Source: Takakia lepidozioides (Eukaryota > Plantae > Bryophyta). Taken from it: a stretch of 64,000 bases of DNA. Made by a program: the position numbers and the translations under genes. Within the stretch, counting starts at the first letter, position 1. The number at the start of each line of letters is the position of its first letter. The stretch is from positions 89,590,001 through 89,654,000 of the forward strand of contig CM060731.1 of the NCBI GenBank assembly GCA_030704615.1, written 5' to 3'. Under the pieces are notes generated by a model. It searched no databases and was not told the DNA's origin. It was given only the letters and a program-made list of their open reading frames with translations. Below, one piece after another: positions 1,301 to 31,300 of this stretch.

Positions 1301-4300
1301 AATTTGATTCAAAGCTTCCAGTCATCACATTCCATTTTCAGAAGACCTAAATATGTAACAATACAATCAATATCATAAAAATTCAGATTAGGTCCCTAAG
1401 TCCATACCAACTGAAAATTACTGTACATCATTAAACTCGACAATGTAAAATAATTTATGCATCTTCCTAACTCTTACATAGCACATTTTCACTCAATTTT
1501 GTGTTGGGTAAGTAGTGGCAAGCAACGCTAGTAAGCCTTTATATCCAAATAACACTTCAACCTAAAAACACAATCATCAAAAAGATACATAATGAAGTTG
1601 AAAAAGTAATAAAATAGAACATACACTACAACAGATCGGGTATATATGACTACCAACCCGCGGTAGTCATGGCTTTCCTGACTATAACCATGACTTCCCT
1701 GTATTTCTAGACCAAATTGAGCTTTACGTAGTTGTTCAGATGACTATTTGACTACGTAGTCATCTGAACGACTACGTTGGTAGACGCCTTCATGACTGCA
1801 GGACTCCGCACTGGACGTAAGGCTGGTCAACGATGGTTGACCAACGCGAGCTCACCACCAAATAGTTGCCTGAATGACTTCTAGTGCAAGCCTTGTAGCC
1901 AAAAGGTTAAAAAATTCAAAAAGTTGCTTATAGGGTTGCCCATTATGGTAGCCATGAAGAGAGGGTTGGGACTTGGCCTCCTTCATGGGCTTTTGCTTAG
2001 TATCGAGCCGAGAGCATGGAACGCGACGAGGTCAGCATTCTGCGAGATAGACATAGGTCGGCGAATGGATTACCTTCAATCTCCTTCCGAGTTCTTTGTA
2101 CAAGAAACAACCAGAAAACACCACAGTGCAGGAGCGCTCAAGAAACTCCACAAAAATCTTGCGCATGGGGCCGCTAGTGGTTGTCCCACAAACAGCAATG
2201 GTGATATTACCAGCCCATTACTCTCTCGCTCCAATTCCTTTTGTCTATGCAAGTATTCCTAATGCCTTTTCTCTCCCTTCAGTGTCTTGATTGCCAACTC
2301 CACTTTTTGTCAGAGCACCAGACAATGACTTTCACTTGGCTGACACAGGTCACTTGAAGACTCAAATATTTGGGAGCTCAGATCAGTTTCTCCATGCTTT
2401 GTTCCACAGTAACCAATCTCTGCATCTTTTGTTGTTCGACTTTTACCCCCACCTTTGGTGCCTTGTCATTTACAGCGCCTCCTCCTTTGCTGGTGCATGT
2501 TCTTCTGAATGGAAAGCAACATATCCCCCTACCTTTGAGTTGCCAAAAACTAGCTGCGACAACTTATTCCACATGCTCAGCGCCGGACATGAAGTCCTCT
2601 TGTTTGCATGGTAAGCACCCATCCTTTCATTTGCTGCAACTTGGCTTTTCTCAATCTGTCCCCTTTAATTCTAGGTATGGCTCTACTTTGGATCCCTTTG
2701 CTTGTGACAACAAAATTGACATGCCCATTTTGCATACTTCAACTCATCTCAAACAAGTTTTGTCGCCCTTATTCATACATGTGGTGATCCAATTGCAGGG
2801 TTATTACTTGGCATCTTCATCCCTTTCTCCCGCTCAATGCACTGTTACTAATTAGTGACCCCAACAGCTCCAGCCTTTGCTTGTGTCAACACCTCATCTC
2901 CAGGTTTGCACTCCAGACCTTGTTCCCACCTTTGCTTTTCAGTCCATTTCTTTGCTTGGGTTTTTGACTGAACATAATCACTCAACTTTCAGATTCAAGT
3001 ACAACCTATTTCTGGCTCCTCGATGATGGTATATTCTGGTACTTCCAGCCTGGAACTTGTACTTCTACTTCATACCGCTGGTTCAAAACTTTGCTTACCT
3101 CCAGTCCCCTCACCTTGTGACGACCTATTTGTAGCAACACCTCATGTTCCCTCCGTTGTGTTCCAATCTGCTTTATTCTGTACCCTTGTTGAACTGTTTT
3201 TTGTTGCTCCTGCCCTGATTTCCAGATTGGTTCACAAGGTTTGGCATCCATATCAGTCCCACATGTACCTTCATTCCACCCTTCAACAAATTTGTCTCCA
3301 GCTATCTTCTAAACCACAAGTCTTCATTGCATTGTTAGATGTTGTAGCTTCAATATGGCCATCACATCTTGGACTTTGGCATGAGTTTTTAAGAGGTCCT
3401 TCACAATGGTGGGACAACCACAGTTGCAAGGTGTGGCTTTCTTAATGACATCTGATGTGAACAAGTTTGTCTATGGTAGTTTGGAATGATTGTGACATGT
3501 TATTGCATTGCCAATGTGGCAGCTGTGAAAAGCAAAAACCAACTTGAAGAGGAGAAGCTTTTCTTCAAATATTTTTGGACCCCAGTCAATGGTTTACAAG
3601 GTTCTTTGGAGAGTCAGCTTGGTCTTAGCAGGCCGTGTTTCAATCCCTGCCTGTTCAGCTGCACCGTGGTGGTTCTCACAGACCAATCCGACATTACCTG
3701 ACTACAGACACAAGCAGCACACACAAGAGGTCCTTTTGGGTTGATGGTCGGTTAAATCCTCCATGGGTCATGACACAAGGTCAAGGATAATGTGGTGAGG
3801 CACCTTCTTCTTCAACCTATTTCAGTCTGTTTTGCCCTCTCCTCATTAGGGTTGGGGTGTTTGCTGGAAGAACTTCACGCCGTCAGTGTCAGCAAGGCTG
3901 AGGATGTATTCATCATTTATACACAGGCAGGGATAGCTGAAGGACCAGGTCCATAGAGGTTCAGATTCATCCAAGAGGGCTAGATTTCAAACACAAGATT
4001 ACTTCTGATTCCCTGTGGATCGATAGCTACAAGAAATCTGCGTGGATAGATGGTCAACTGGAAACAGCAGTGGCAGCAGCACAATTGATAGAACAAGACA
4101 CAGCTAATGAAGGCACCTTCTTCAACACATTTCAGCCTGTTTTTCCCTGTTATCAGAGTCGTCCCTAATTTCATGTTGAATTCTGCAAGTTAGCTGGTTG
4201 AGTGAACCTTTGATAGTTTGGAGTGATGATACTGCCAATGTGACAACAGCAATGGTGGGACAATCGTGGCAAGAAGGTGAATGCCTGTTGGATTATAGAG

Positions 4301-4684
4301 TAGCAGATGCAATTGAGCATAGGAACTAGTGTGATAAGTTGAGGTGGGTGTTTCCTAGAACAAATTTAGGCTGTCATCGTCAGCTGCTAGCAGCAAGGCA
4401 AGGATGTATGCATGATTTGGCATGGGTAGCTGAAGGAGCAGGGAAGAGGGCCAGATTTCAAGCTCCAGATTACCTATGATTCCTTGTGGATCAATAGCTA
4501 CAAGAAACCTGCATGGGTAGATGGTCAACTAAAGGCACCAGCTGCAGCACTAAGGGTCCCCTCTGTGGGCATGTAAATACAGCCCACAAAGAGGTTCTTC
4601 CTACTCACGCCGCAAGCAGGCCGCTGCCGCACCAGCAGCCAGCCACCAGCAACAGGCCCCTGCACTTGGTGAGTATTTTCAATT

Positions 4685-4820
4685 GTCCTTCACTTAATAT
4701 ACATGTTAACAAGGCATTATATCAAAATGTCTGGCTTAGATCCAGTTTGGATAATGTGAACATGAACTTGCCCACCAGCTTCCAAGCTTTCTTCCTTATG
4801 CACTCATGCAAGAGACAGCT
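4685..4820 (-). pseudogene. Second short PPR (L-motif-like) fragment in opposite orientation
   Basis: The reverse strand reads, across frameshifts, LLHECIRKKA-EAGGQVHVHIIQTGSKPDI...LVNMY. Confidence 0.55.
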
Positions 4821-4894
4821 AAGTATTGAATCTGCTGAATTGTTTCCTTGGTTTATAGGGGGCAGGGCAAAGAATCATAGGTAGTTTTGTGCTT

Positions 4895-5200
4895 GAAATG
4901 GAGCCCTCGTGGACATGTACATGCAAAATGTGGGTGCATCCGAGGATGCAAAGGGAGTGTTCGACAGTATGGCTGAACAAAATGTGGTGTCGTGGAGTGC
5001 GATGATTGCAGGATATGCACAGCAAGGGCATGGGATGGAGGCTTTGGAGACCTATGAGCAAATGATGTCCGAAGGGGTGAAGCCCAACCCGTTTGTTTGC
5101 ATTTGCAATGCATGTGCAAGCCTAGCAGCCCTGGGAACGGGCAAAGAGGTCCATGGTGACATCGTCAAATCTGGAATTGTACCCGATGTCATTCTGAACA
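4895..5200 (+). pseudogene. PLS-class pentatricopeptide repeat (PPR) gene fragment inside CACTA
   Basis: ALVDMY..EDAKGVFDSMAEQNVVSWSAMIAGYAQQGHGMEALETYEQMMSEGVKPN..CNACASLAALGTGKEVHGDIVKSG is a typical S-P-L motif run. It is truncated and frameshifted. Confidence 0.88.
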
Positions 5201-6348
5201 TTGTCCTGGTGATACAGGGTGATGAATTACTTGTGTCATCAAGTTTTGAAATACAGGGTGATGAACTTTTTGACTTGGTTCTTTCCTCTGATTCTTGTCT
5301 ATGAATAAAAGCATTGATTTGCACAGTCATTTCTTGTCACTTTGTTCTTTCCTGTGAATCTTTCCTGTGAATGAGGTTCCTTTGATTCATTGTGACATCT
5401 TGATGACCAGTAGTTGCTACGCTTGGGTGGGTCATGTGGGTTACTGCAGTCAGTAGTTAGATTCACTATAGCAGTCCAAGTGCAGATTACAAAAAGACGC
5501 TTGCACTACTAGGGTTCTACTATATAAGCATTATCACTTTAACACCACTAAACAACCTGCAATCATACATTGACACATGTCATATCCAATAGAAAACACT
5601 TGGCATAGTCTTGGTTTTGACTGTTAAATACATTTAAAATTTCAAAACAAACCCATTATATGATGCCACGTGTCCAGATATTAGCTTGTTTGTAGTCAGG
5701 AGAATGACTGCAGGACCTCCTCATGAGATGCCACGTGTCAATTCCTGCGAGTGCCATATGGCGCACATCCAAAAATCTCCCGGAATTATTAAAAAGAGAC
5801 ACGTGTACAGTTTGCAGCACTAAGTCAAATATGGTAGAAGTACATATGACTGCCAAATGACAGTGAGATGTATCACTTCGCTCATCTGACTCCAGTCATC
5901 CATGACCGACCATCCTGTACTCATTGTATTCACTTGGTTTGCACGACTTGCAGTCATAGCAGTCATATGTACCGTTTATGACTACAAGATAGTCATATAT
6001 ACAGTCATAAATACCGCGATCTGTTGTAGTGATATTCGCTTCGACACTTCAATCATCGCAACACTCTTTTGTAGCACCTATACATGTTCGCTTCAACACG
6101 TCAATCAACGCAACACTCATTTGTAGCACTTATACATATCACTCATACATAGCACTTAGGCCAATGTTGTTAAAACCATTAGTTACGTGTTGGAATTGAA
6201 ACCTTTATATTATCCAAACGACACAACATATATCAAATTCGATTTCAACACCTCAAAATAAAATTCAATTCCAGAATTTATTCGCAACACTTAATATTTA
6301 TTAATACTGACACCTAGGTCAAAACATCAAAACATTAGAGAAAAGAAA

Positions 6349-7091
6349 TTAAGAAATTATGGGACGACCTCCACTCGCCATCAGACTTACGTAGGGTGGG
6401 CCAGGTAGGTTATATACAGGTGGGGGTGGGAAGGATGTGATAGCCATGTCGTGAGTGTCGGACAATAAGCTGGTTTTAACGTGGGTGGGGAAGTCTGGAG
6501 GTATATGGGTATGGGAAGCATTGTGGACTAACATGATTAGGGTTAGGGTGGATTCTTTGTGGTGTAGATATTTTGGGAAGGGTAGGTTGCGTATGTATCT
6601 AAGTTGTTTGGGTTCAATGGCTACCAATGGGGTGACGTTAAGAGGGAGTTGGAAGAGTGGGTGTTGATGGTCGGACATTTTTTGTTGTGTTAAAATGAGG
6701 ATGGTGGAGGTGGCAGGGGAGGAGTGTGTGGCATGACGAGCCATCGTAGGGCTTCGTGTGCGAGTGGCCCTGCGGGCGGGTGAACAAGGCCGCCTCCAGC
6801 CCAAGTGTGTTGGGTAGCGGATCCCGAGACACCGAATATACAGTCGCGGGGATGTGGACTGTCGTATGAAGAGAGTTCCATGGGGCAGGTAAGTGGGCTG
6901 GAGTAATATGAGTGGGTCAACTGAAATGAGGTGATGAGGAGTTTGAGGATGTCTGGAAGGAGGGTATTATGGGAATGGGCTTAAGCTAGTTTGTTGAGAT
7001 TACGCGGTTTTTTGGTGGGGATGTCGTCAAGGTATCGATTAAAAAGCCAACTGACCTCTGTGACGAAGTCTTGTTTCGGTGGTTGTAGCTG
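6349..7091 (-). pseudogene. PCIF1/CAPAM-like N6-adenine methyltransferase domain relic (probable retroelement fragment)
   Basis: Reads FVTEVSWLFNRY..NTLLPDILKLLITSFQLTHSYYSSPLTC..YDSPHPRDCIFGVSG..GGGLVHPP..SSPATSTILIL..LTLIMLVHN. This parallels the recalled PCIF1 motif order (LLRRY; LP..VFEALHRLFGVSFECFASPLNC; YCSAFPDTDGYFGSRG; GSFEANPPF; SFIVFIP; VLFLQN). One stop and one frameshift. Confidence 0.72.
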
Positions 7092-9166
7092 CACTACAGC
7101 AAATGGGGGGGTTTGCGACGCCAGCCGCGCCCCCACGCCGAGCCCGCGGCGCTTTTTTCAAACGCTCCGGCGTCGCAATCCCTTGCTGCGACACAATTAC
7201 GACGCCCAGCCGTCGTAAGGTGGCATGAAGGGGGAAAGAAGGCCCTCGCTGCGACGGATTTTTTTTCTTGCGACACCCCGGCGTCGGAATTTTGTTTTTT
7301 ATTTTTTATTTTTTTGGACGTTGCGACGCCTCGGCGTCGCAAAAGCGTCACTAAGGGCGCCCCAGCGCCTTTGCGACGCCAGGTCGTCGCAATAGCATCA
7401 CCACAGTGGAAGTTTGTTTTTGTTTGTTTTTTTTTTTGGGCTTTGCGGCCCTCAATTTCACAAAAGCGTCGCTGGGGGCGCCCCGCGCTGGGACGCTTTG
7501 AAATACTGGCTCTAATGAGGTGTGCTCTCTGTGGTCTGAAGGAGCCGAGGTATTTTTACCATAGCTGATTTCCAGTGGAATTGTCACCCATCATCTTGAT
7601 CTCTCCATGTATCCTTATCTCTGATGTTCTAAAGTCGACCAACCACTGTCCACTCTGAAAGTCAGAGCCAAGAGTGACAACAAAGATGAAAACTTTCGGG
7701 AGTTCAAGCATAGCTTTGCAATGGACGGTGGTGAAGTCAGAGGACATGCATGGGGTTGAAGCACAAATGGCAGCAGGATGGCGAATGCAATCCGCCGCAA
7801 AATGTGTCTCTATTTCTTGGCAGTTTGATAATTTGATTGCCAAATAATCGCTGCGTATATCAACAAGGATGTTGTGGAGGTACTTTTGCGTTGATTTTAC
7901 TTCATGGCTACAGCTTGTGGGCTCTCTGATGATTGTCTATGTCAATCGATAGATACAAGATTCCAAGTTCGGTTCTTGTGATGTTCAGCGATGTTGGAGT
8001 GCAAGAAGCTCGACTACAGGATCAATGAACTGGAGTTTGGCATTGTGAATGTGAGGGCCTAGGATGCGAAGAACTGTCTTCAGGAATAAAAGATCATGCA
8101 TGATTCAGAACGTGAGGAATCTTACACCTGTTTGCAATTTCTTAAGCACTGTGATGCGAGGTGCTCGGAATGTTTTGCAGGGGAAAGAAAATGATATCTT
8201 ATTCATGTTAGGGGAATTGAAGTGAAGCACTGCAGGTCTCTGCAGGGGTAGTGGTGGGGTTGGCCATTGTTGGCTTTGCCATTTGGTATGGTCGGCGAAG
8301 AAAGCCCTGTTGGTTATGAGACTATGCATAGATTTGTACATACTTCTTGGTAGCAGTAGTGATGGCTAGATCAGGCATGTCTCATAGGCCAGTTGCAATT
8401 TATTTAGATGGTGAGCTTGGAGAAAGTACATGAGATAACATCAAAGCTGTTTCTCCATCTGTTGGTGTATGGTTCCAATTAGCCATTGGATACCATGCAG
8501 TCTCGTTCGCAATTCTTATCTCGTTGAAGCGTGTCTCTCCATTCTGAAGCATTGGAGCTCACATGACAGGAGGGCAGTAAACATGCTACCCATTCAAAAC
8601 CATGAATGGCTTAGATACTGCGAAGGATGCTGGGTAGTTCCAATCGCATGATCCTCCAAAGAGATTCAAACCATACACACCATGTTATATACTGTTATGA
8701 GTTGCATTATGTTATGTGGATGTAGATTGCCTCCACTCGCTCTATGTTTGCATAGAGGAAAAAAAAAAAAAAAAAAAAAACATACTTTGCAATGTAGAAT
8801 TAGCACCATTCGGGGGTCGCAAAGTGCGACGCCCAGACGTCACAATTTAAGGGGGTACATTTGAATTTAGGCGGGAAAATTTGAATTTGAAATTTGAATT
8901 TCAAAAACTTGTTGACCATTGACTCCGGTTCTGTCTAATGGCAATGTGTTCATTGTTCTACATATATCATGCAATGCATACTTAAACCTAAGACCTCCAC
9001 GTTATAACATTTCTAAGGCACTACAAACTAACCAACACACCTACACTACATCTATGTATCACAAAAACAATCTAAATATATAAATATATATATATATATA
9101 TATAAAGATTTTCTTCAAGTTCTTTCAAGTTCTTTCTAAGGGGGTCTCTCTTGTGACGCCGGGGAG
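7092..9166. mobile_element. Second CACTA element, main body (other terminus at 10258-10443, inverted)
   Basis: Terminus CACTACAGCAAATGGGGGGG at 7092 with dense TGCGACGCC subterminal repeats, preceded by CTG (CAG on the minus strand). The interior is degenerate and unassignable. Confidence 0.85.
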
Positions 9167-9410
9167 TTGCAACCTCCACAGCCTAAGTGCCCAGCCCCAG
9201 CCCCAGCCAGCGTCATTGCCGTTGTTGCACTTCCCACCGCCAGGATTGCAAGACGGCGACTAACGATGGGGTTGCTCTTGTACCCGGCCTCTTGGTCTAT
9301 AGAGTTTGAGTACAATAGGGACAGTGATAGAGGACTTAGTACGGCTGTGGCTATTACATTTTGTAGCTATCTGGAGTTAGAGGGACCTAACCACCAGCTA
9401 GGGGGGCGAT

Positions 9411-9495
9411 TGTGGTATAGCTTTCTAGGATTGTGTGCTTAGATTGTGTGGTGGACATCGATGTATGTTGTGGCACGATGCTTAGGTGCACGACA
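9411..9495 (+). repeat. 85-bp terminal repeat X, copy 1 (directly after the polypurine tract)
   Basis: TGTGGTATAG...GCACGACA, with 2 mismatches to 9899-9983. Follows AGGGGGGCGAT. Confidence 0.95.
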
Positions 9496-9497
9496 GC

Positions 9498-9897
9498 TGT
9501 CATGGTTTTAGTCATGGTTATCTAGAATTACCTACTTCTAGTTAACTAGGACATTTTAGATATTTATATTTATATTTTGTGTGTTGGGACTTCATTTGGT
9601 CTCACATGCCAAGTGAGGTGTCGAGCCTCACTTGAGACATGGAGATAGGTTTTCCCCTTGTGAGTGTTGAGGAGGTTCATCTTCTTGTAGTTGAGCCTCC
9701 ATGAGCTTCTCTCACCTCCATAGCTCTAGAGGGTTTTGTAGGGTTGATTCCTTTAGCAAAGGTGCCCTTGGCTTGACTTAGATTATCTGATAGAGTGGAT
9801 TTCACTGGGAAGGACTAGGGCTTGTTCTTCATGTGATTGCTTCATGCTTTGAGAGCTTTCATTGTCTTCTACTTCTCTCATTTCTCATTTCTTATCA
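9498..9897 (+). repeat. 3' LTR segment A (400 bp)
   Basis: Matches the reverse complement of 19233-19652. Confidence 0.95.
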
Positions 9898-9898
9898 T

Positions 9899-9983
9899 TG
9901 TGGTATAGCTTTCTAGGATTGTGTGCTTAGATTGTGTGGTGGACAGCGATGTATGTTGTGGCACGATGCTTAGGTGCATGACA
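9899..9983 (+). repeat. 85-bp terminal repeat X, copy 2 (element terminus)
   Basis: TGTGGTATAG...GCATGACA followed by the TSD AAGA. Confidence 0.95.
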
Positions 9984-10064
9984 AAGATTATAATTATTCA
10001 TCTTGTGTTACAATAGAGCGAAGTCCTTGGAGAATTAATTCACATCATGAATATATAATGTTAA

Positions 10065-10257
10065 CTACAATATCCAAATACACATCACATAATGCAACCC
10101 AGACAAAGACATTATGCATGGTCCCCCCCTCATATGCCCCAACCCAACAAAATCCAACATCTACACAATCAACGGTAGTTTTGTCGGGTCTATCTCCAAC
10201 ACGCGGCTTACTTGGCTCTGGTACAAATACTCCACCTCCACCACACATATTAACCAG
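10065..10257 (+). pseudogene. N-terminal continuation of the PCIF1-like relic, displaced by inversion
   Basis: CNPDKDI..NIYTINGSFVGSISNTRLTWLWYKYSTSTTHINQ joins in frame to QLQPPKQDF (7091 down) through the shared CAG target-site duplication of the CACTA. Confidence 0.7.
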
Positions 10258-10443
10258 CACTACATGAAAAGGGGAGGGGTTTTCGACGTCGCGGCGTCGT
10301 AAAACAGCCCTTTTCAGGCAGGGGGGAAGAACCAAATTTGCGACGCCCGGGCGTCGCAAGCCCGTCGCAAGGGCGTCGCCAAAAAAACGTCGCAAATTTG
10401 CAACCAATGGAGATCGCAACGGCGTCGCCACAGGGGGTCGCAA
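10258..10443. mobile_element. Second CACTA element, displaced opposite terminus
   Basis: CACTACATGAAAAGGGG at 10258 preceded by CAG, with the same TGCGACGCC/GGCGTCGCAA subterminal repeats. Confidence 0.85.
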
Positions 10444-10536
10444 TGGTGTTGTGGTCAGCTTAGGTCATCACAAGGATGTCACTTGGGGCTTGGCCTTGCA
10501 TTTCTTGTTAGCCTTCCATGGTTGTATCCACTCCTA

Positions 10537-13500
10537 CTATCCAATGCAATGCGGACATAACCAATCCCCATCAGGAACCATCTCAAGAGGTGGAGTCAAG
10601 CATCCCATATGCCAACCTCTAGAGCATTGATCACACACCAGCATGGTGGTTGCCCTTCTAGCAGACCCACACAACATGCACCTCAAACATGCAGGTACCA
10701 CTGCCAGGTTTGGGTCAACCCTTCCATCAACATTTGGAAGGTGACATGGCGCGCAATTACGCACATGGTCCTTCCAAATCATGCCATCTCGACCCTCCAA
10801 GATCAGGACTCCTGAGGGCAACACCTCTCGAACCCTCAAAATAGTACGTCCTGCAGTCACATCCAAGGTCGTAGGAGCAGTTTGTTGCAGATAAACATAG
10901 TCACCAAGGTTAAATCTCCGAACCCCAGGACGATAGCCCCCACCACGTATGGTAGCATACCTCAACGTATCACGATGTTGTGCAATGACAAGGTTCTCGA
11001 AAGCCATGGGCATGACTTTCTTGAACAACTCTGCACGCTGATCACATGTACGTGCCCACATGTCCGGATCGTCAAGGTTGAGAACTGTAGTAGCTTCTCT
11101 ACGAATGGATGCAGACAAATCCGGCTCTCGGCCAAAGAGAAGAAAATATGGTGAGAAGGAGGCAAGTGATGCTTGCTTGCTAAACTTGTAGCCCATGGCT
11201 AACCAAGGTAACTGAAGGTCCCAATCTCCTAGGTGTCCCTTCTGCAAGCCATATTTGCGCAAACCCCTCTTCACTGTCTGAACAACCTTCTCTGCCAAGC
11301 CATCGGCCTCAGGATGATCCCGAGAAGTGGTGCGGTGGTCTACCAAGGCCTTGTCACACAATGCCTGAAACTCCCCCAAGAACTCTCTCCCTTGGTCCGT
11401 GAGTACCTCAGCTGGAGCACCGAATCGGCTAAGTACACAATCCAAGAATGTATACGCAGCTCCCTCACTAGCCTTATCACGCAATGGAACCAACTCGATC
11501 CACTTGGAGAAGTGCTCCACCATCACCAACACGTATTTGTTGTGGCGCATGGTCAGTGGCAACGGCCCTGCGAAGTCAAGACTCCACCTGTAGCCCAATC
11601 CCATGATCGGAAGAGGGTGCAATTGTGGAGTAGGGGCGTTGAATGAAGCATGCACCCTGTCACACACCATGCACCTAGCCACAAATTGTTGCACCTCTGT
11701 GTGCATACCAGGCCACCAATACTGCCCATGCAGTAGACTATGAGTGCGTCGCACCCCAAAATGCCCCAACTCCTCATGGGCATGCCGCACTAACCGTGCC
11801 CGCTGTGTTGGGTGAGGCACAATCCTCACTCGATCAACCTCCCACACTCGGAGCAGGTGTGTCCCCTCCCACTTGAACCTCTTGGCTCGTTGTAGGATCC
11901 GATCCATCTCCTTGGCAGTCACAGTGGCTGCCGTGTCTCCAGTGCGGAGGTAGTCCAACACAGCTGAATCCTCATGTATATCTTTGGCGCCACCTTGCTC
12001 ATTGCTGGCCTCAGGGTCCTCAGACACTCGGTCTACAGTCATCCCTGTTGTAGGTCCAACCTGGCCTTCCGCTGCCAAGATACACAGAAATGCAGATGCA
12101 TGCCATCCGGGCACCATCTCCTCGTCCGTCTCACCATGCCACCGAGCTCCAGTATCATTCTGCTGGCTCGTGCATGGATTGCGACTCAACCCATCTGCAT
12201 TCCGATTGACCAAACCCGGTCGATGCACAACCTGAAAGTCATACTCTTGAATGATGAGTGCCCACCATGCAAGCTTCCCCGTAAGCTTGTCTAACTCCAT
12301 CAACCACTTGAGTGGTTGGTGATCCGTTATAAGGGTGAAGAGATTGCCGTATAGAAAGCACCTAAAGTGTGCCACGGCCCACACTACAGCTAAGCATTCT
12401 CCCTCATATGAGCTATACTTAGACTCTGCAGCGTTGTTCAAGCGGCTAGCATAAGCCACTACGAACTCTCTTCCCTCATCATCCACCTGTGTGAGCACCG
12501 CTCCAAGCCCCAGCATGCTCCAATCTGTATGCAGCTGAAAAGGACGCCCCCTGATAGGTCGTCTCAAGATGGGTGCCGAGGTCAACCTCGCCTTGAGCTC
12601 TTGAAAAGCTTGTTCTTGCTCATCTTCCCACTGCCACTCCTGGTCCACCTTGGTCAGTTTGGTTAGAGCTTTTGCAATGGCACTAAATCCCTTAACAAAC
12701 CATCTATAATAGTTTGCTAACCCCATGAAAGCTCGAACTCGGCTCACATCCGTGGGGCGTGGAATCTGTGCAATGGACTCTACCTTAGTCTGCTGTACCC
12801 CCAATCCTCCAGGATATATCATGTGACCCAGATACTCAATTTGGTTGTAGAAAACTTGCACTTCCTCGGATGTAACTTCAATCCGTGCGCCCTCAAGCGC
12901 TCAAATATCACCTGAAGGTGTCTCTCATGCTCCTCCACCGTAGCACTAAAGATAATGATGTCATTTATGTAGCACTGAGCAAACTCCACCCCTGCTAGAA
13001 TCTTGTCCATGACTCTCAGAAACTCTGCTGGAGCGTTCTTAAGCCCAAATGGTAAGAACCGCCACTGGTATAGGCAATCCTTCCTGTGCTCATTGATCCC
13101 CCAGAATGTCGTCTTCTGCTTATCCGCCTCCTTGATCGGCAACTGGTGATATCCGGATCGTAAATCCAAAGTGCTAAAGACCTTGGCATGCCCAATGACA
13201 TCAAAGATCTCTTCTGGTGTCGGCATGACATACCTATCGGACTTGGTCTGACGATTTCCAGGCCGGTAATTACCGCATATACGTCTCTCCGTCCAATTGC
13301 CATAGACATCATTCTTGGCTGGCATCACTGTGGCTGAAGCATACTCTCCCCCAGATAGCTCCACCAAACCAGCCTCCCAAAGGTCCTGAGTTCTCATCTG
13401 AATCAAGGACCTCTCCATGTCACTGTATCTATAGGGTCTCCGAAAGATTGGCGTGTCAGTAGCCAATTCAATGCGAATCTCTTGACCCTTCAGTGCTCCT

Positions 13501-13544
13501 AAGTCCTTCAAATTGAAGGCAAAGCAGTTCCTGTAAGCCCTCAA
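10537..13544 (-). pseudogene. Gypsy RT - RNase H - integrase - PHD finger
   Basis: RT: FSTLDLRSGYHQL, PFGLKNAP, YINDI (YIDD mutated). RH: HTDWS, TDHQPL. INT: HEELGH..CMVC, SLDFAG, LTDQG, GLAEK. C-terminal C4HC3 PHD CMLC..CDQC..H..C..WLCPHC. One frameshift at ~12850. Confidence 0.95.
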
Positions 13545-13984
13545 GAACCGCCGTATACGTCGTCTTTCTCCTCCGGTGACTATAGGTCCAACATTAGGCT
13601 CCCAGTTGTCCTCCGTGACTGCAACCTTGAGTCCAGCAGGCTTAGAGGTAGAAGACGCGTCCCGTGGTTGCTATGCTGCAACCTCTTGAGCAGTGACCAC
13701 TGCCTTCTCTGTCAGTGACAATGTCTCATCCTACCCCATCATCCCATCCTTGAGGACCTCCTCAACCCGAGAAAAATCCCCAACCTCATCCATCACGGCC
13801 GCCTTGGCTGCCAACTCATTTTGAACCTCGAGCACCTCCCACGTGTGCCATAGATATGGCCTGCACCTTGTGGTCCTCATCTGTTCGCCCCCACTCGCTG
13901 CCTGTACCGTCTCGGTAGGTAGGGAGACCATCAAGGGAAGTGTACTCTGTACTCTGCGCTGCTCAGCCATAGCCAAGCTGATAA

Positions 13985-14920
13985 TCCAGGTCAAGCAATT
14001 GAGATCCATTGCTTGCCCCAACACCTGACGACGTGATGCCTCAGAAAGAGATGGCACCGCCATGGTACCAGTGGTGAAACCCATTGCCCGTTCGCGCTCG
14101 TCAGCATTGGGCTCCACTGACTGCTCCAACTGGCTATCCCACAAGAGGCCAGGTCCACCATCCCGGAAAGCATGAGATCCTGGAAAGCTGAGCAGTGTAG
14201 GCAATGCTGCTCGTGGGTGACCCACCTTATTGACCACTGCCAAAGGTGATCGGTCATCGTGTCTCACACGCTAAGACTGCCTCCCTATGTCCAAAATGCT
14301 ATCCACCGTCAAGTGGCCGCTGCACCCCATCAAATGCACGCTTGAGCAATGCAGGTGGCATCAAGTTGGTCCACCATAGTCGTGGGCGATGAGCCCGTGA
14401 CCCCACTGCAACTGCATCCAGCAACACTGTTGACCCAAGCCAAGACCGCACTTGATGTACACTGGCCATCACCTTGGCCCGAGAATCACCCATCAATGGC
14501 ACATTCTCCAAGATATATGCCGGAGAGTCTGTCTGCTGAAGCTGTAAATAGCGCAGGACCCTCAACATCTCCCAAAACAGGCGTGACTTTGAGTCTTGTA
14601 ACCCATTGCCATACCCAGCTGATGAAAGCCCTTGGCAGGGCCAACCTGCCACTACTAAGTGAATAGGGCCAACCCGCTCCAAATCATGCGCCCCCAGCAA
14701 GGAGATGTCTGCTGGCAAGGCTTGTTGGTATCCACAAACTGCAGACACTGGCAACAAATCAGGGTACTGCTGCACCAACTGAGCAACATGGCGTAGTGAG
14801 ATACGTCGTGCAGTCTCATCCCTCTCCACATATAGGTAAAGTCGAACTCGTACACCTGCCTACAGCACTGCAGCCAATCCAGTGTTAATCCCGCCAAACA
14901 AGTCTAGAAGGCATATGCCT
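13985..14920 (-). pseudogene. C5 cytosine DNA methyltransferase domain within the Gypsy polyprotein
   Basis: Motif I LLDLFGGINTG, motif IV VAGWPCQGLS (catalytic PC), motif VI ILENV, motif VIII HRPRLWWTN, and motifs IX/X ERERAMGF...VLGQAMD, all in canonical order. Two TAG stops and one frameshift. Confidence 0.93.
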
Positions 14921-15200
14921 TCATCCGGGCACTACCACAAAAGAGGTGTGATGTCCAATGGCGACAACTGAGGTGGTCGTGGTGCAATCACCGCACTCTC
15001 CTCCTCTCCTGACGGTACAAAGGCCTCTACCTAGGTTGTTGCACCCGTCTATCAGCAGCCTGCTGCAAATCCTTGCTCGTACCCCACAATGGAGTGTGAG
15101 CAACCATGGCAGACAACTGCGCCGTACCATGCATGTCATCCTGCTCTGCTGGAGGTGGCACATCCTCTGCATGGGCATTGCCATCCAGCAACTCTCCAAG

Positions 15201-17903
15201 TTAACTAACTGCAGCTGTGAAGGCTGCTAGTGTTGGCATCTTGCTCCGTTGGGCAGCAGCAACACCCCCAATGAATGTCACAAGAAGTTGTACACGCCGA
15301 CCATCCCCTGACTGCCATCCAGGCCTGTAGGATGCCGACTCCTCCCAAAAATCCAGGGTGAAGCCCATGGGATACAACACTGCCCCACCAACGAGGACAT
15401 CGTAAGAGACCGCTTCTGCCACAATGGCCTTGGCTCGCATCACTGAGCCATCTATAGGATGATCCGGCTGTAGTCTAATGGCCAACTCACGCCGTGTCAT
15501 GCCCCGAGCCTGCTCTGATCCTCCCAGAGATGTCTGTATCTGTAAGGGACAAGGCTCCATATCCGCCTCCATGAGGCCCAAACCTGCAATAGCGGCTTTG
15601 CCCAACATCAGTGGCTGAGCTCCCAAGTCCAACAAGACCCGCAGTGGCCGGTACCTCTTGCCTGCCGCTCCACTCAAAGAGAAAATGCCATCCTGGTTGT
15701 CTAACAAGACAACTCGAGGTGTCACCATGGCGCGCTCAAAGGCTGGCCTAGCTGGCAGCTCCGTCAACCTGGCAGCTGCAGCTTGCCATGGCGCAGTCGT
15801 GGCAGTCTTGACCCTCAAATCCGAGGATCTCTCTGCCACTACACCTTCCACTAACTCCGCAGAAGATGAAGTGACCTCCCCACTCTCACAGAGTGTTGCT
15901 GCTAGTCTGAACACTACAGCTGGTCTTACCCCCGGCGTCGCAATCATGGTTGCCGAGAACAGTGGGGCCTGACACACAGAGGTGGCCGCCCCCAACAACA
16001 CACTGGCTGCACTAGCCTTGGCAGCAGGTGTCAGTGCTGCACGTGTAGCTCTTCCCAATGGCACAATAACCTTCGCCTCGGTATCCGTGGGGCGAGAATT
16101 AGGTGCCATGGATGTCGTCGACACTGTCTCCGCCAAGATGAATGATTGAGGCAACCTAGCCTGACGGCTTGCCTCCCCACGTTGTGAATCCAACTCCACC
16201 TCTGCACCTCGTGGCTCAGGAACTCGTGCTGCTCCTCGAGTGATGGCTGCAGCAGACTCCACCTGCACTAGTGGTAGTGCTGCCCCACACATAAATCCCA
16301 TGTCTCCTCCGTCAGGATGACGCTGCTGAGGAGGAACAGGAGGTGGACCCTCAGGTCTTGGAGCAGGTACCACCTGAGCTGTGGCCATGGCAGCGAGCCT
16401 TTGCTCTAGCTGCTGAAGCCGGTTGGCCATACCTTGGTCAACGCCCTGACCTCCACGTCCTTGGCCATACTGTGCTGCACCTCGTCCTGCACCTCGTGCC
16501 TGAGCACCTCGTCCTCTTTGAGGTGCTCCACCTCGCCCTCGGCCACCATTGTTCCCTTGGAACTGGCCTCGCCGCAACTCAGGGTGCAAGTCATAACACC
16601 GGGCATCTCCATGCCCATACTTGCCACAATGCCCACACTATAACTGTGCAGGCTGTGCTTGTGCCGGCCCTTTGCCACTTTCTGGGCAATCTTTCTTGAC
16701 ATGAGGTCCTCCACATGTCCAACATACCACCCCTGGTTGCTGTTGGCCTGCAAAAGAAGATACTGGCCTCTACACCTGAGGTCCCATGTAAGCTCCATGG
16801 AATTTGGGTTGGGCAACCTTGCCCCCCTGACCACGCTATTGGGCAGTCCCTTGTACCTGTTGGCTGGCAGCTGCGCCTCGTGCAGACATGTCCTTGCCAA
16901 ATCCAATGGTAACAACTCACTCCTCCACCATGTTGAGCTCAATCCGCTCAGCCAGCAGAAACACATCCGCTAATGTGGGTTGGGCCGCTTGTAACAGGGT
17001 TGCATCCCGCACCCTTCTCCTGAGCTCCTTGTCCAAAATTCCATACTAGAACTGGACTGCCTGAGCTTCAGTAACCCTTTGGGTCACACTTATCAAGCGC
17101 CTCATACGAGTGTAGGCCTCTCGCAAGCTATCACTGGATTTGCGCTGGAAGTCTTGCAAACTTCGCAGCTTCTCTGTCCGTACACCTTGGTAGTTCCTCC
17201 GCAACTCCTGGAAGAACTCCACCACTGGGTTGAATCTAGGCACATGTGTTGTAGTCGTGGCAGGAGGAGTAGTAGCACCTTTTGAACTGGTACCACCTGC
17301 AGAAGTACGGACACTACTTGTTCCACTACTAGTGCTTGTAGTTGGAGATGTTTGTATAGCTGCTGGTGTCACCGCTGCCCTTGTGCCTCTAGTAATTGAG
17401 ACATAGTTAGGTGACCAATACTCTCTCACTCCTCAATCTCCACCGCATGTCCCCGCCTAAATTCATGGTAATCATCCATGGGCGGCCCCTCAAGGTGCTG
17501 GAATAACCCCTTCCACGCCATAAAGGGCGTAAACAGTTGTGGATTGCGTATTTGCTGCAAATCATACCAACTGTCAAACTCTTGTATAAAGTCATCAAGC
17601 TCGATGGTGCCCACAGCTCCAGAGTACCTACGTGGCCCCTTGGTAGCTCCATACATCTCCTCCATCGTGTCCCACAACAATGGCACGGAAATGACTTGCA
17701 CCCTCGGCAAGAATCCTCCTGACTCCGAGTCTGAACCTTCCTTAGAAGACACTGAAGGTGAAAGTGGCCTAAACCGCACACCTCGTCTTGTGTACCCACT
17801 AGTATCGCTGGTGCTCGTACCGGCACTCCCCTCAGCAGCTGGTGGCACCTCCGTGATGAAAACTCACAACCCAATCGGTTGTCAACCTGTCTCTAATCCC
17901 CAT
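15201..17903 (-). pseudogene. Gypsy gag (two zinc knuckles) and aspartic protease
   Basis: Capsid-like ELDDFIQEFDSW and FQRKSSDSLREAYTRM. Knuckles CWTCGGPHVKKDC and CGHCGKYGHGDARC. Protease site VLLDLGAQ. Several stops and frameshifts; the start is uncertain. Confidence 0.85.
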
Positions 17904-19232: not shown

Positions 19233-19652
19233 TGATAAGAGATGAGAAATGAGAGAAGTAGAAGACAATGAAAGCTCTCAAAGCATGAAGCAATCACTTG
19301 AAGAACAAGCCCTAGTCCTTCCAAGTGAAATCCACTCTATCACATAAACTAAGTCAAGCCAAGGGCACCTTTGCTAAAGGAATCCACCCTACAAAGCCCT
19401 CAACACACTCCCTCTCAATACCTAGAGCTATGGAGGTGAGAGAAGCTCATGGAGGCTCAACTACAAGAAGATGAGCCTCCTCAACACTCACAAGGGGAAA
19501 ACCTATCTCCATGTCTCAAGTGAGGCTCGACACCTCACTTGGCATGTGAGACCAAATGAAGTCCCAACACACAAAATATAAATATAAATATCTAAAATGT
19601 CTAGTTAACTAGAAGTAGGTAATTCTAGATAACCATGACTAAAACCATGACA
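19233..19652 (-). repeat. 5' LTR segment A (420 bp, TGTCATGG...CTTATCA)
   Basis: Near-identical reverse complement of 9498-9897 apart from a ~21-bp indel and scattered substitutions. TG...CA ends. Confidence 0.95.
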
Positions 19653-25373: not shown

Positions 25374-28300
25374 TCAATGCACTATGTAAACAAGATCGCC
25401 TGCTACCAGGACGTCAGTGGGAACAGGGTTAGTGTAGACATAAGAGACAATGGAGCCATTAGTACCCACGGGCCGATAGAGGCCTAAAGCCAATGCATTG
25501 TCATTGTGTAGCATACCCACGAACAGCTCTTTAAATGTCCGGCCCACATAATACTTGGGTACTGCCAATTGATCAAGCTTTCGCACCACTATCGGTTTAC
25601 TGAATTCATCTGCCTCCGGAATAGTGCCTCCCCAGATCAACTGATCCACTATGGTCACTGTCTGACGGTTGTAGAAAGTTGAATACCTGCAAAAAAAAGA
25701 AAAACAAGGGTGTTGTGAATGGAAAGATTTTATTGTAACATTGAAATGAACTAGTCCAAAGCAACAACCAAAACCACTCACATTAGGACTCCAAGAGCTG
25801 CAGGACAAAATCCTTTCCCCTCGATGTAAGCAGCTGCAAACTGGAAGGTGGCTGCCCGGTGGCGGCGGTACATCTCATTGTCAAAAAGGCGCCGATCAAA
25901 TGTCCATGTGGGCTGCAAGTACGGAATTTCTGTCTCTTCCCGCAATTCTACTGAAACACGGCCCCTTGATGGACGCAGCAGCCGCTCCACCTGGCATGTC
26001 AGACCAAGTCCATGGATTCACTAAAGCAGAAGATGGTCAGAGTTAATCACAAGCCCACCTAGTTTCAAAGCACTTCCATCATACTGCACACTTTAACACA
26101 TCTTAGGTCCTACCTGCTGTTATGCTACGGATGCAATGACAAGAATGATCTGTGAGGATGACAACAGTAATTTAAAACTTCAAAAAATTGTCCCAACAAA
26201 GATGGAGAGTACTTGAGATAGAGCCACGTGTGTTGGTAGCACAAAACGTTGGCAATCTGCGTTTTTGAACTGACTTGTAGATGCTGACATTGCTTCTGTG
26301 AGTGACAACAGCTCCCCAGACTTTTTGACTATCTAAGTGGGATATACAAGTACCAAAACCTTTGCAGAATGTGACAGACCAGATTTCACAAACAGCAACC
26401 GTGCACTCTCTCGAGACAATCAGAAGGAATTTTCTCAGTTTCAACCTGCAGTCTATTGCATGTCTGTAACAAAGTTGAGTAAAAAGGCATAGCTACCGTT
26501 GCCGCGATAAGCACATTGTTCACGTCGAGTGTAAATAATTTCAATGAAGGTGTTAGGTGGTCATCATCACTCGCAATCTCCAGCACTGGTTGCTCTATCT
26601 CGAAGCCCTGGGTCAATATCACCACCTTCTCTGCTACAACATACACATTCCACTGAGGATGTAACTGCGAGGAAAAACAGGCGACTCAGCATCCTGCCTA
26701 GCCCAAGAATGGAAGTTGAGGAGTACCTGAGAACTGCTACACTGGACAAGCAAATTGTGTTGGTAACTTCTACGAGAGAAATCGTTCAGTACAGGGCCTA
26801 CTGTTCATACACCCATCAGCTACATAGAAGACATGATTCAATTAGAGCTTAACCGGTTGCGTCAAAACCTGCTCAAAATTTTGGGGTGAAGTATCGTGAA
26901 GAGTTCCCCCTTGCCAGCACAGAACAAAGTTGATCAATTAAAAAACTTCAAGGGACATAGATGTCTGTTTAAGGGTAAAAGAGAATAACAGATTCCTGTG
27001 GAATGAGGACGCACCTGCTTGCAGTACCCCGGCCCGCACCAAATCTAGCTCATAGATAGGACACCCTTTTACAAAATAAACGTCCTCGTAAAAGCCAACG
27101 CAGCCCCAATCAGGAGCACTGGGCTCTTTCGGGTGCAGAATTACGATTGCTGGGTTGGGCATGACAGGAGTTCGCAGAAGTGACACAAAGTAGAACAGAC
27201 TAGTGGGCCATTGGCCCTGTATACACAGCAGTACATGGGGCACCTGGAGCTTGACTACATTCAAAGTTCGTTCCTTCAGGTTTTCCTGAATTTCCTTTGC
27301 TCGTCTTTCCAGGATTGGGGGATCGGGTTTGCTGAACTTCTGAAGAGGAGGCCAGCTCATAGTCATGTTGATGGCCTCCTCTAATGAGACTACGCCTTTG
27401 ATCGCTAACCGGGGTGTATCTGAACTCTTCCTAGAACTTTCACTATCGTCTTCACCGGTAGAAGAGGTCGATATAAAATGCTGAAGGTGGTGCGTTGGCA
27501 CATTGCTTCCCCCTACAGGTTTCCCCACTGACCCAGTTAAGGACTCCCTGAACTGTGTCAGTTCGAGGTCAGAGCTTGTCATCGAAATTTTGTGGTCCAT
27601 AATATTGGTAGTCAATCCATCTTGTTTGGAAGCTGTTGGTTCACTCCTTTTGACTTGTTGCAACAGATTGTCTTCCTCTGACAGTTTTTGAAAGATTTTT
27701 TGGCGAAGACAAGGGACAAAGTGCCAACCACACCATGGGTGTAGGCTATCTTTCCCAAATTTTGACACCTGTTCAGCAGTCGGCAGGTCCTTCGCAATGG
27801 CCAAACCAACATCTGTGCCTTGTATAGCACGTCCTCTTGGATAGAGAAGCACTTCCCGCAGATTTTCTTGGTCATCAATTGAAACATCAAGACCAAACAG
27901 AATGACACTGTATCTGAGGTACACCAGTTCTGCAGCCTGTAGGAACTGTCCCATTCAGATTACCACCATACTAATCTTTTTCATTGGCTCCTTTCATCTG
28001 CTTTTGTTGAAACTTGGACTACACGATTACCCAGAGTTCTGTGCTTGTCTCAACAGCACAGGTAGCTGGAAGTTCCGAAGGTTTAAAAGTACCAGGGGGC
28101 TTAAGGAACTGAACATGTTTAGAATTCACAGATATCAGTATGGTCATTCATGAGCAACAGAGACTTAGACTGGATTTTGGGAACATATTATTCAGGCCCT
28201 ATCCTAAACTGATTTCCATCACCAACCTCTTAGTCCTGGAAGATACAAAAGCTGCAATTATATTTCGAACAGCCCAGGGCACCAGACAGTAGTAGACGGT

Positions 28301-31300
28301 TGACCAAGATTTCCATAGCAAGTTTTATGTTGGTGAAAGTAATCATCACACCTGCTTATGGCCAAGGGCATGACTCACCTGCTCAAAGAGTAAGCCCTCC
28401 CTATGAAAGCAGGCAGGTAAGATTACGGGGAAGACTTCTTGATGAAGACCATGCACGTATTGCATAATCCAATGCCCTGGTATGGGTTTCGAGAGTGTTA
28501 ATCCTGACCGAAATAGATTGATCACAAAAGTTGTCAATCCTTTGATGTGGCAGCTGCACAACATATAAGGTGTTGTTTGGTTAAGTGATTGCCAATACTT
28601 GGCGCGGAAAATTCTCATGATCTGTCAGCCTCTCTGCCCAATGGCAGAATAAACGCTTGTTTCCTTTCTGAGCTGTGAGATGGAGCAAGATCTCAAATGT
28701 TTAATTTATCTTTTGACAAAGCTGACAATGAGAGGAGACGGTCAGAACCTGCGTGCAAGAAGCTTGAAGCGGATAACATCGAGGCAGATGATCTCAATAC
28801 CACTCTCAGTTTCATCCCAGATTGCGCTTGCCTGCTTTTCAGGCTTCAGTAACTCCACGATGACTCGCACCTGTGGTCCACAATGGCGGTGCACTGAAAG
28901 TGTCCTCACAATTTGCGCCGCATCCTCAGCATCTGGATCCTGTGCTCTGCATTGATTGTCATTGTCCAAGAATACTAGCTCATATGTATGGATGATTGGA
29001 TCCCCACCAACAAACACCTTAATCTTAATCCAAGAACATCTCATGATTGTAAGGGCCCAGGTCTTGTTTGTGGGTACCATTTCTTGTCCTGGTAAATTTC
29101 TTTAATGAATGTCATTGCAGCTCCTTAGGGCAGTGCCTTGATTCTTTCTATATGTTTGTGTCCTCTTGTCTGTTGCCTCTTAATTAATGTTCAAGTTGGC
29201 AATATTTCATTCACTAGTACCGGGGCTGGCTCTAACTGGTCATTCCTCACCTCAAACTGTGCACCCCAATCACTGCTGGTGGTCATGGGTGGCAAGTTCT
29301 CTCCCGTTTCTCCCACTTGAGCATCTGTGGACTTGCATCTGTGGACTTGCCCACATGATTTACAGAATGCAAGTAGATCATAAGAACAGCCCATGGTTTC
29401 TTTGATCTTTGTCTGTGCGACTACTCCACGAACTTTCTTATTATTGTTCTGCTGAGAGCTAGAACCGGTCCAAAGTTTCAGACAACTCATCCTTCTCTGA
29501 GACTGGCAAGAGCTGTAAGCCCCATGGGTAACTCTTTCAATCCAAAAAGTGATTCTAACCCTTTAATAAAAAAATCTGAGCTCTAATAAATGTAGCATTG
29601 AGGTCACAGAAGCACATGAGACATGACAGATTATTCTATATTACCTTGGCTTGCCGATCGGCCAGTAAATAAAATGCAGAGGCGATCCTTGCACACACTC
29701 GGTCCAGGTCTGAATCTTTCACTGGTGTGCCCTGTATAAACTCAACCCGATCTTTGTAGTGTATTAACAGTGTCTTAAGCTCAAACCTGGCAAGACCAAA
29801 ACAAGCAATGTGTTATCCCACTTGATCCCACTGTTTTGTGGTACAGTGTTTCTTTCTGTATCTGCAAAGTATACAACGGAGATGCAAGGGCTAGCTAAGC
29901 CAACATGTGTCAGCAGACTTCACTCAGTTACCTCAAGTTCAGGCATGCTGGCTGGAAACGAAAGACAAACTAGTGACCGCAGTGGAAACTGAATTCATGG
30001 TTCAAATCTTGCTGAGTTTACAGACACTAGAATAATCATGGCAGAGGTTAATAAGAGAAGTGAAATGAAATGATACTTTATAATTTCCACGAGAAGCATA
30101 AAGAGCTTATGGGACAAGGAGGAAGAAAGAAACAAGAAGAGAGAGGGGCCACAAACAGCCCAAAAGCAAAGGAGTGAGCACGCACGAGGGCTTAAATGGA
30201 GCCAAAATCACCACCCGCAGAGGGTACGCAGGCATGTCTGCATCCATAATCACAGCTGCTTAGAGTCCTCCCCATTTTGAAAGGAACATACTTCCAGTAG
30301 GATTATTCTAAAGCTGATGAAAGCTCATAGGTAGAACAGCCATAGAAACATTCTTAAAATGGAACTCAATGACAAGGTGATTCCCCTCCAGCATGTCACT
30401 CCCACCTTCTAGTGATTGCTGAATCTCATGAAGTTGTTTCAGGTAGTGTCCTTTTAAAAATGCACTCCCTCTCTCCTAAGCCCTGGTAGACTACATCAGA
30501 CACACCTTTAATATGACTGGGATGGTAGAATTCTGCCAGGAAGTCTTGCACAGTGCGATATGATAAGTTGCCACTCACAATAACGAATCGTGAACCCACC
30601 ACCTTCCTCAGTGTCAACCTCCCTCCATAAGGTCTGCTTGTGAGGATTATCATCCATCCATCCACTACAACTGTGACCAACATGTATTTACTAAATCTGA
30701 ATAGAGTTGGAGAAATGTTGCCCTGGAACTATATGGCAAGTTGTGGCATTCAAACAATTTCACACAATGAAAGGTGCAGCAGTATGGTCAGCTTCAACAC
30801 TGAAACAGAAAAAAGCAGAAAGGAAACCACATTGAACATTCTAGAAAGTACAAGAACAAAGTGGAGTTGAGTACCCATGCGACACATAACAATACTGTCA
30901 GTCAAGAAGAGGTTATGTGGGGTAAAACTGCCAGACTGCTCTGCCCTCGTTGATGAGAACAATGAATTCTTGGTCCACATCAAGTGGGATCCCTCTCCAT
31001 TTCAGCAACTACATCTTGCAGTAGGCAGAAAGCACTGGTTTTTGTTTTTTTCATGTACTATGTACAGTTAAAGATTTCACATTGGTTGCATGGATACATT
31101 CAAAACATTGCACCCCATTCCATAAGACCAGCCTTCAGCCATAACCACAGGATTTTTCCAGTATTTGACAAATGTGTAGAACAGCAACTCGTAGGGATAA
31201 CAATTGTCTGTATAAGACTGGAATTGCCTTCCCTTGCAGGGGGCATACCTGGACCAGTTTTATACTTGAAGAACTTCAGCAGTTTAGCAGACACCAACTA

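Follow-up and report, generated by a model that had tools for sequence, protein, structure and literature searches.

We analysed a stretch of 64,000 nucleotides (nt) from the bryophyte Takakia lepidozioides (assembly GCA_030704615.1, contig CM060731.1, positions 89,590,001 to 89,654,000 of the forward strand), referred to below as the window. Between 6349 and 10257 the window carries a dead coding relic related to the N6-adenine methyltransferase PCIF1, also known as CAPAM. The locus is a fossil, and it points to a conserved, apparently unannotated PCIF1-fold domain in the polyproteins of Dualen-type long interspersed nuclear elements (LINEs). The relic amounts to 929 nt and consists of two pieces of one coding sequence, 10069-10257(+) and 7088-6349(-):

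10069..10257, + strand: relic piece A, the N-terminal subdomain of the PCIF1-like domain (beta-sheet and helix), profile columns 46-107; a stop codon lies at 10090, and the final codon is the target site of a CACTA transposon.
6349..7088, - strand: relic piece B, the core with a Rossmann methyltransferase fold (motifs YSSPLTC, D..FG and HPPA) together with some of the linker that connects to ribonuclease H (RNase H) in intact relatives, profile columns 108-320; a stop lies at 6983 and a frameshift near 6740.

The unity of the two pieces is supported by two kinds of search. In tblastn, the nearest intact relative, P0002 (444 residues), ran through piece A and then through piece B: its residues 77-130 matched 10069-10230(+) (E 1e-5), residues 139-260 matched 7097-6732(-) (57% identity, E 5e-38), and residues 230-330 continued in a second minus-strand frame, at 6825-6523. 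The junction was then examined with a profile made from 82 relatives and containing no window sequence. Columns 46-107 of this profile fell on 10069-10254(+) and columns 108-228 on 7091-6720(-), so that the two pieces adjoin at 107|108; columns 213-320 were found in the other frame, at 6768-6424(-). The profile score of piece A was 58.7 bits, against a maximum of 7.4 for shuffled sequences (969 of 1000 shuffles scored).

The original prediction, made from the letters of the window, had joined 10065-10257(+) and 7091-6349(-) into one split relic, and this proposal is upheld by both searches. It had also described the stitched relic as an in-frame stretch of about 300 codons. The relic is single and intronless, and an intron was ruled out as the cause of its change of frame, the offset being one base; its approximately 310 codons are, however, not open, given the stops at 10090 and 6983 and the frameshift near 6740. 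Likewise, every PCIF1 motif that had been listed is present, but ILIL and LVHN are in a different frame from HPP. The idea that the relic could be recovered only after stitching does not hold: a stop-free core of 96 amino acids (aa) at 6693-6980(-) matches by itself Pfam family PF12237 (E 0.004, under the curated cut-off) and P0002 (63% identity; one match among 340 candidates). A second, word-indexed search also yielded one match, among 639 candidates, and a phmmer search of the same core against the PDB yielded none. With two stops, one frameshift and no flanking domains, the relic is dead.

Paralogues of the relic are numerous. In run X3, 372 contigs were placed on 6150-7150, up to 16 at one position, although summed contig depth does not equal copy number. 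Position 6983, a stop in the window, is part of a sense codon in the seven contigs of that run that were counted. Each of four runs, all from a single sample, contains one contig in which 7085 and 10247 are connected on opposite strands, most simply an uninterrupted paralogue; these contigs were placed at 85% likeness with 44 letters on the short side, and have a supporting role only. A separate observation concerns 6585-6631, where runs X6 and X7 (presumed to be RNA, from separate studies) have contig ends in common on either side of 47 nt that match a relic paralogue. The contigs continue into unrelated sequence, and a weak possibility is that they contain an exonised fragment; the observation has no bearing on expression.

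The separation of the two pieces can be traced through the following features, which include two copies of a long terminal repeat (LTR):

10255..10257, + strand: first copy of the CACTA target-site duplication, CAG, next to the terminus.
7089..7091, - strand: second copy of the duplication, CAG on this strand (CTG on the + strand), next to the terminus.
10258..10460 (inner limit approximate), + strand: one end of the interrupting CACTA, with subterminal repeats (about 20 repeat motifs per kb, versus 0.08 in 11000-64000).
7092..7500 (inner limit approximate), + strand: the opposite end of that CACTA, which the inversion has turned to point the same way as the first.
9498..9983, + strand: LTR copy 1 (TGTCATG...CATGACA), an inversion breakpoint, bordered by AAGA on the right; a repeat of its final 87 nt occupies 9409-9495.
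19235..19652, - strand: LTR copy 2, comprising the first ~420 nt of the LTR, inverted; the other breakpoint, with outer flank AAGA.

The interrupting element has CACTA termini, a 3-bp target duplication and subterminal repeats. No transposase was detected among its scanned open reading frames (ORFs), and those at 7559-9439 have no credible Pfam match. Its termini begin at 7092(+) and 10258(+) and point the same way, and the two LTR copies are identical at 388 of 396 aligned bases. When the segment between the LTR copies is reversed, an 11.8-kb CACTA bounded by CAG duplications and an LTR bounded by AAGA duplications are obtained. Because both words are rare in the window (frequencies 0.006 for AAGA and 0.018 for CAG), a single flip restores two independent target-site pairs. 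The proposal of a CACTA insertion and an inversion is supported.

The junctions are read directly in the window, while the order of events is our reconstruction. The CACTA would have entered the coding sequence, duplicating CAG; an LTR would have landed some 85 nt upstream of piece A, duplicating AAGA; and a Gypsy element with a second, inverted copy of the LTR would have come to sit in the CACTA. Recombination between the inverted LTRs, the simplest cause of the inversion, would finally have flipped some 9.3-10 kb and carried piece A and one CACTA end to the other strand. Two details of this region deserve mention. Positions 9399-9983 contain a purine tract, then the final 87 nt of the LTR and, two bases further on, the LTR in full; unflipped, this is a circularly permuted LTR, as if derived from an LTR circle or a template switch. 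Positions 7500-8780, inside the CACTA, have low depth, lack a Pfam match and end in a poly(A) run (~8759-8780), and may be a captured retrocopy.

The nature of the element that carried the relic was investigated through its relatives. P0002 has a chromodomain ahead of the PCIF1-like domain, and P0003 (839 aa) has a start resembling the thumb of reverse transcriptase (RT), a weak chromodomain, the PCIF1-like domain and RNase H. An alignment of the two proteins, compared with 1.84 billion representatives, retrieved 1614 proteins at E <= 0.001, a number to which the profile's RT-side and RNase H portions also contributed matches. The PCIF1-like domain itself was present in 109 of the 181 proteins collected (counting the window piece and near-duplicates). 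Among the 30 domain proteins of at least 440 aa, RNase H follows the domain in 28, a restriction-like endonuclease (RLE) is found in 23, and RT precedes the domain in 15; eight of them, in six clusters, combine an apurinic/apyrimidinic endonuclease (APE) with RLE, three with no more than a truncated APE. The order of domains is invariant and occurs in single ORFs: (Josephin)-APE-RT-(chromo/PHD)-PCIF1-like-RNase H-CCHC/RLE. The local domain profiles behind these counts were seeded from P0087 and P0094, and Pfam and a nuclease match provide independent support: Pfam detects APE in P0094, P0130 and P0159, and Josephin in P0087 and P0154 (E 2e-4 and 4.5e-3, below the cut-off) and partly in P0130, and the C-terminal profile matches the R2 nuclease with E 1e-13. 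Pfam PF12237 is matched in the relatives down to E 4e-14, with up to 53 bits in the long ones versus a cut-off of 31. RT, RNase H, chromo and endonuclease domains thus surround the domain in relatives, in agreement with the earlier view that the relic belonged to the polyprotein of a non-LTR retroelement rather than to a spliced, single-copy host gene.

Intact relatives are predicted to adopt the PCIF1/CAPAM fold. For P0002, residues 86-357 were confidently modelled by AlphaFold2. In Foldseek the six best matches of this model are all CAPAM (E 3e-10 to 5e-9), and in VIA 229 of its residues align with human CAPAM 417-668 (Z 16.9, root-mean-square deviation (rmsd) 4.6), the next family having Z 8.0. 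A domain model of P0087 (pLDDT 85.7, pTM 0.85; TM 0.68 to PCIF1/CAPAM) gave a similar result among 48,161 chains: Z 20.2, rmsd 3.2 and 236 aligned residues for CAPAM, 8.0 for the next family, and 6.2 and 6.0 for the Dam enzymes of T4 and E. coli. The Atlas model agrees, with TM 0.68 to PCIF1 and 0.47 to a Dam cluster. The match covers the subdomain encoded by piece A. The matches of profiles extending into RNase H were dominated by RT/RNase H entries, and a domain-only profile was used for comparison with the PDB; PCIF1 was alone below E 1 (6irx, E 6e-8, and 6irv, E 7e-6, two of the nine entries listed), with FASPL paired to YSSPL, D.FFGS.G to D..FGS.G and NPPF to HPP. Pfam found no WW domain in the relatives, and the helical domain of PCIF1 is incomplete in them. 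The fold expected by the original prediction is supported, with CAPAM the top match by far.

An intronless sequence with a PCIF1 fold could also be a processed pseudogene or a decayed copy of a host PCIF1 gene. We consider this origin very improbable, and the polyprotein context largely refutes it: the closest relatives (57-63% identity) have chromo, RT-thumb, RNase H and RLE domains fused to them, the relatives are only 16-20% identical to CAPAM, and many paralogues exist in the same genome. An origin from DIRS or DAM-LTR elements was rejected as well. Pfam found no integrase or recombinase in the relatives scanned (21 and 11), and detected Dam in one of 21, weakly (E 0.002).

A tree of the domain (39 of 42 rows, omitting P0006, P0007 and P0015, with no outgroup) separates 14 long proteins with the motif 'ERFASP' from 25 'YSSPLTC' sequences with support of 100/100, and places the window in the YSSPLTC clade as sister to P0002 (95/93). 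On the RT side, members of this clade show RT-chromo-domain-RNase H (P0003, L001, L006); on the C-terminal side, domain-RNase H-CCHC-RLE (P0004, P0008; RLE also in P0162). The succession of non-LTR RT, RNase H, CCHC and RLE that is typical of Dualen can therefore be pieced together from overlapping fragments of the clade, though not from the window. The element type can be named more exactly, as Dualen/RandI-like. A metagenome scan added seven loci of 1-2.2 kb, from 33 pattern matches, all too short to reach the APE position. The Atlas feature cluster nearest to residues 80-335 of P0002 is mostly of Chlorophyta (three records). The second and third nearest are compact PCIF1-domain proteins, mostly viral and in one case mainly of Nucleocytoviricota, which might be considered candidate donors or recipients.

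The long branch (100/100) between the clade of the window and the APE-bearing proteins admits another explanation: the source may have been a non-LTR lineage with a PCIF1 domain that is sister to Dualen, and that has RLE only or a different N-terminal half. No APE was detected in fragments of the window clade, as this explanation would predict; all of those fragments are, however, too short for the APE position, and their pieces of RT, RNase H and RLE are arranged as in the Dualen-type proteins, which they match. We regard a sister lineage as improbable.

Whether such a domain could be an adenine methylase was judged from its catalytic motif. PCIF1 requires N553 and F556, and the change of its NPPF motif to APPA is the standard inactive mutant (PMC10544176). 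At the NPPF position the window relic reads HPPA, as originally noted. A census was taken of 95 aligned segments, 62 of them readable at the anchor and 33 dropped. Of 51 YSSPLTC-type rows, 3 have a canonical [DNSH]PP[YFW] and 35 have D or N at the fourth position; of 11 long-type rows, 1 is canonical. When 14 long-type rows were read, one was canonical: NPEY occurred three times (P0087, P0092, P0098), HPPF once (P0058) and HPPA, as in the window, once, with nine other readings. The catalytic NPPF is hence rarely kept in the family. Positions 3-4 of the tetrad vary, while 26-27 of 28 rows and 13-14 of 14 rows retain D..FG and W; nearly every row of either clade has the S-P of the first motif, the D, the FG and the W that comes next. 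We take these conserved positions to line the pocket for S-adenosylmethionine (SAM) in CAPAM structures.

The domain is under purifying selection. Ratios of non-synonymous to synonymous substitution (dN/dS) between locus L001 and loci L002-L005 were 0.08-0.14 for the N-terminal subdomain and 0.14-0.25 for the core, and 0.26-0.33 for the flanks. At the catalytic motif these copies have FPTD, FPMD or HPSD. Because NPPF is rarely canonical despite purifying selection, a non-catalytic module that binds RNA or SAM is likelier than a writer of N6-methyladenine (m6A). Our preferred reading is twofold: the relic is probably an internal fragment of a non-LTR ORF, likely of Dualen/RandI type, and the live domain is likely a non-catalytic RNA- or SAM-binding module and not an adenine methylase, as far as sequences and models indicate. 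Located between the RT thumb with its chromo/PHD reader and RNase H, the domain would keep the fold and the cofactor-pocket motifs, would have lost the adenine-stacking aromatic residue of NPPF, and might help the polyprotein to hold its own RNA, possibly at a capped 5' end, during target-primed reverse transcription. The description of the relic as a putative m6A writer is not supported: this copy is dead, and most of the family lacks the aromatic residue.

An active N6-adenine methyltransferase with an altered motif (NPEY, HPPF or HPP[DN]) may nevertheless persist in some Dualen lineages, acting on the element RNA (at the cap-adjacent A) or on new cDNA or target DNA. Retention of the whole fold at high confidence, conservation of the cofactor-side motifs and of the [NH]P start of the catalytic loop in both clades, and purifying selection on the domain are all in line with activity, and several relatives have a chromo/PHD reader directly upstream, as do the DAM-carrying LTR elements with raised 6mA (10.64898/2026.05.21.726589). 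The aromatic fourth residue is, however, missing from most rows, FPTD is found in copies under purifying selection, retrotransposon DAMs showed no activity when expressed in E. coli (10.64898/2026.05.21.726589), and the related DIRS1 domains were judged inactive by Iyer et al. (PMC4738411). On balance, activity seems doubtful, though it is the main rival view. A bolder speculation, rather unlikely in our opinion, is that Dualen, among the most ancient LINE groups, captured PCIF1 early and carried it from algae to land plants as a permanent component of its RT polyprotein, and that some lineages still write their own m6A on the RNA cap or the DNA copy.

Several observations weigh against the preferred reading of a Dualen/RandI fragment with a non-catalytic domain, and against the history proposed for the locus:

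(i). No remnant of RT, chromo, RNase H or RLE of the relic's element was found in the window, including beyond the second LTR. The relic stops short of RNase H and so retains no 3' end, the place of an (ATT)n-type tail and a long target duplication in Dualen/RandI elements.

(ii). Dualen membership rests on the sister clade, since no APE was seen in the proteins of the YSSPLTC clade, all of which are fragments.

(iii). The structural alignment starts at CAPAM residue 417 or 422, and so leaves out the WW domain as well as the greater part of the helical domain, credited with cap binding in PCIF1 (PMC10544176).

(iv). The non-catalytic role is deduced from motifs alone, and NPEY (3 of 14) and HPPF (1 of 14) in long relatives point the other way, as does a cellular PCIF1-clade row reading HPPF in the supplement of Iyer et al. 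(PMC4738411). Many census sequences are, in addition, decayed copies that inflate motif variation.

(v). The dN/dS loci belong to one metagenome assembly and were found through a conserved motif (excluded from the count), and their flanks are likewise constrained.

(vi). The inversion could be a mis-assembly through a 400-nt repeat, which the contigs are too short to span.

Beside the relic lies a second methyltransferase gene of transposon origin, which is context and not part of the relic:

10540..17863, - strand: internal region of the Gypsy element, nested in the CACTA and within the inverted segment.

This element encodes a C5-cytosine methyltransferase (PF00145, E 1e-10) at ~14000-14916, followed by RT, RNase H, integrase and PHD. 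The methyltransferase gene is interrupted by a stop at ~14861 and a change of frame near 14300. The summed contig depth over 10540-17863(-) is 1e5-1e6, compared with 14-115 for single contigs in unique DNA, and the family must therefore be very abundant in this genome. The original prediction had noted that transposon-borne writers of 5-methylcytosine and, putatively, m6A would lie side by side. The Gypsy sits within the restored CACTA, the element that interrupts the relic; the proximity is an accident of nested insertion, and both genes are broken. A functional pairing of the two writers was rejected. The relic family showed no homology to the Gypsy C5 methyltransferase (probability 0.1%). 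A precedent for the neighbour is the Gypsy-Dnmt3 of Klebsormidium described by De Mendoza et al. (PMC5890265), in which KnitGypsy-Dnmt3 likewise has a C5-cytosine methyltransferase in Pol. The Takakia neighbour differs in being a separate, very abundant element with a C-terminal PHD and a land-plant host, and its assignment to Dnmt3 is putative. By title, the literature search returned no report of such Gypsy methyltransferase elements in ferns or lycophytes.

Other features of the window are recorded here for completeness. A second, intact CACTA with an ATA target duplication (1624-6031) carries fragments of a pentatricopeptide repeat (PPR) gene, with 4897-5301 matching PPR families, in a pattern resembling Pack-CACTA gene capture; by Pfam, a fragment of a plant CACTA transposase is present among the window ORFs. 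An APE-RT LINE of another type lies at 58850-63391(-), with a rearranged partial copy at 51410-52648 (98-99% identical); three tandem repeats of ~141 nt occupy 62507-62931, in its N-terminal coding region. A Slo/BK-type potassium channel gene spans ~25400-31700(-), and every named species among its 23 matches is a moss, liverwort, lycophyte or gymnosperm. Together with the PPR and transposase fragments, this points to a non-flowering land plant as host.

Among known systems, Dualen/RandI elements are the closest. The presence of APE and RLE in one ORF is their hallmark (PMC5029228, PMC4640811, PMC9977147), and Josephin is a known Dualen domain (PMC8557442); an N-terminal cysteine protease, Josephin or C48, is typical of the group. 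Relatives of the relic have a long ORF of this kind, with RT, RNase H, CCHC finger and RLE and, in the sister clade, APE and a Josephin protease that scores below the Pfam cut-off. A methyltransferase of another kind, SET, has been described at the N terminus of a cryptophyte Dualen/RandI element (PMC5029228). The published domain lists, as far as available, name no PCIF1-like or adenine-methyltransferase domain (PMC5029228, PMC4640811, PMC8557442, PMC9977147), and the window copy is a dead fragment of 0.9 kb in a land-plant genome, while the hosts named are green algae and cryptophytes, and flowering plants appear without the RandI family in the table of PMC3747384. The relic would thus reveal a land-plant branch of a group that the literature consulted places in algae. 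In our search, covering sources other than Kojima and Fujiwara 2005, Repbase and theses, no published PCIF1-like domain in Dualen/RandI and no Dualen in land plants was found; the portions consulted of PMC8226300, PMC3747384 and PMC6338049 contain nothing on such a domain. An earlier record in Repbase or a thesis is quite possible, if the lesser chance, because long relatives pass the Pfam cut-off. The name given in Pfam, 'PCIF1_WW', may have obscured that the family is a methyltransferase. As an active Dualen is known in Chlamydomonas (PMC9977147), the reason why retroelements keep such domains becomes testable.

With PCIF1/CAPAM (PDB 6IRV, 6IRW, 6IRX-6IS0) the relatives share the predicted fold over ~230 residues (CAPAM 417-673), including the pre-Rossmann subdomain, and the aligned motifs FASPL/YSSPL and D..FG. 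They differ from it in the lack of WW and of most of the helical domain, in their low identity (16-20%), in their location in a retrotransposon polyprotein, and in the replacement of NPPF (HPPA in the window).

The third comparison is with DIRS and DAM-LTR/EpiLTR elements, which also carry a fold of the N6-adenine methyltransferases, within the broad PCIF1 clade; a chromodomain is often present, and the domain is often judged inactive (PMC4738411, 10.64898/2026.05.21.726589). Iyer et al. placed the DIRS1 domains in the PCIF1 clade as likely inactive (PMC4738411); the text searched of their supplement, in which long lines are incomplete, has no match to 'non-LTR' or 'Josephin'. The preprint 10.64898/2026.05.21.726589 covers DIRS and LTR elements found with a Dam profile, and the available part of its main text, supplements apart, does not mention PCIF1, Dualen or RandI. 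Those elements use a tyrosine recombinase or an integrase and match Dam (PF05869), whereas the relatives described here match PF12237 and have the domain between RT and RNase H of a LINE. Non-LTR elements would in this way join the retroelements that carry adenine-methyltransferase folds, from a source that is PCIF1-like and not Dam-like.

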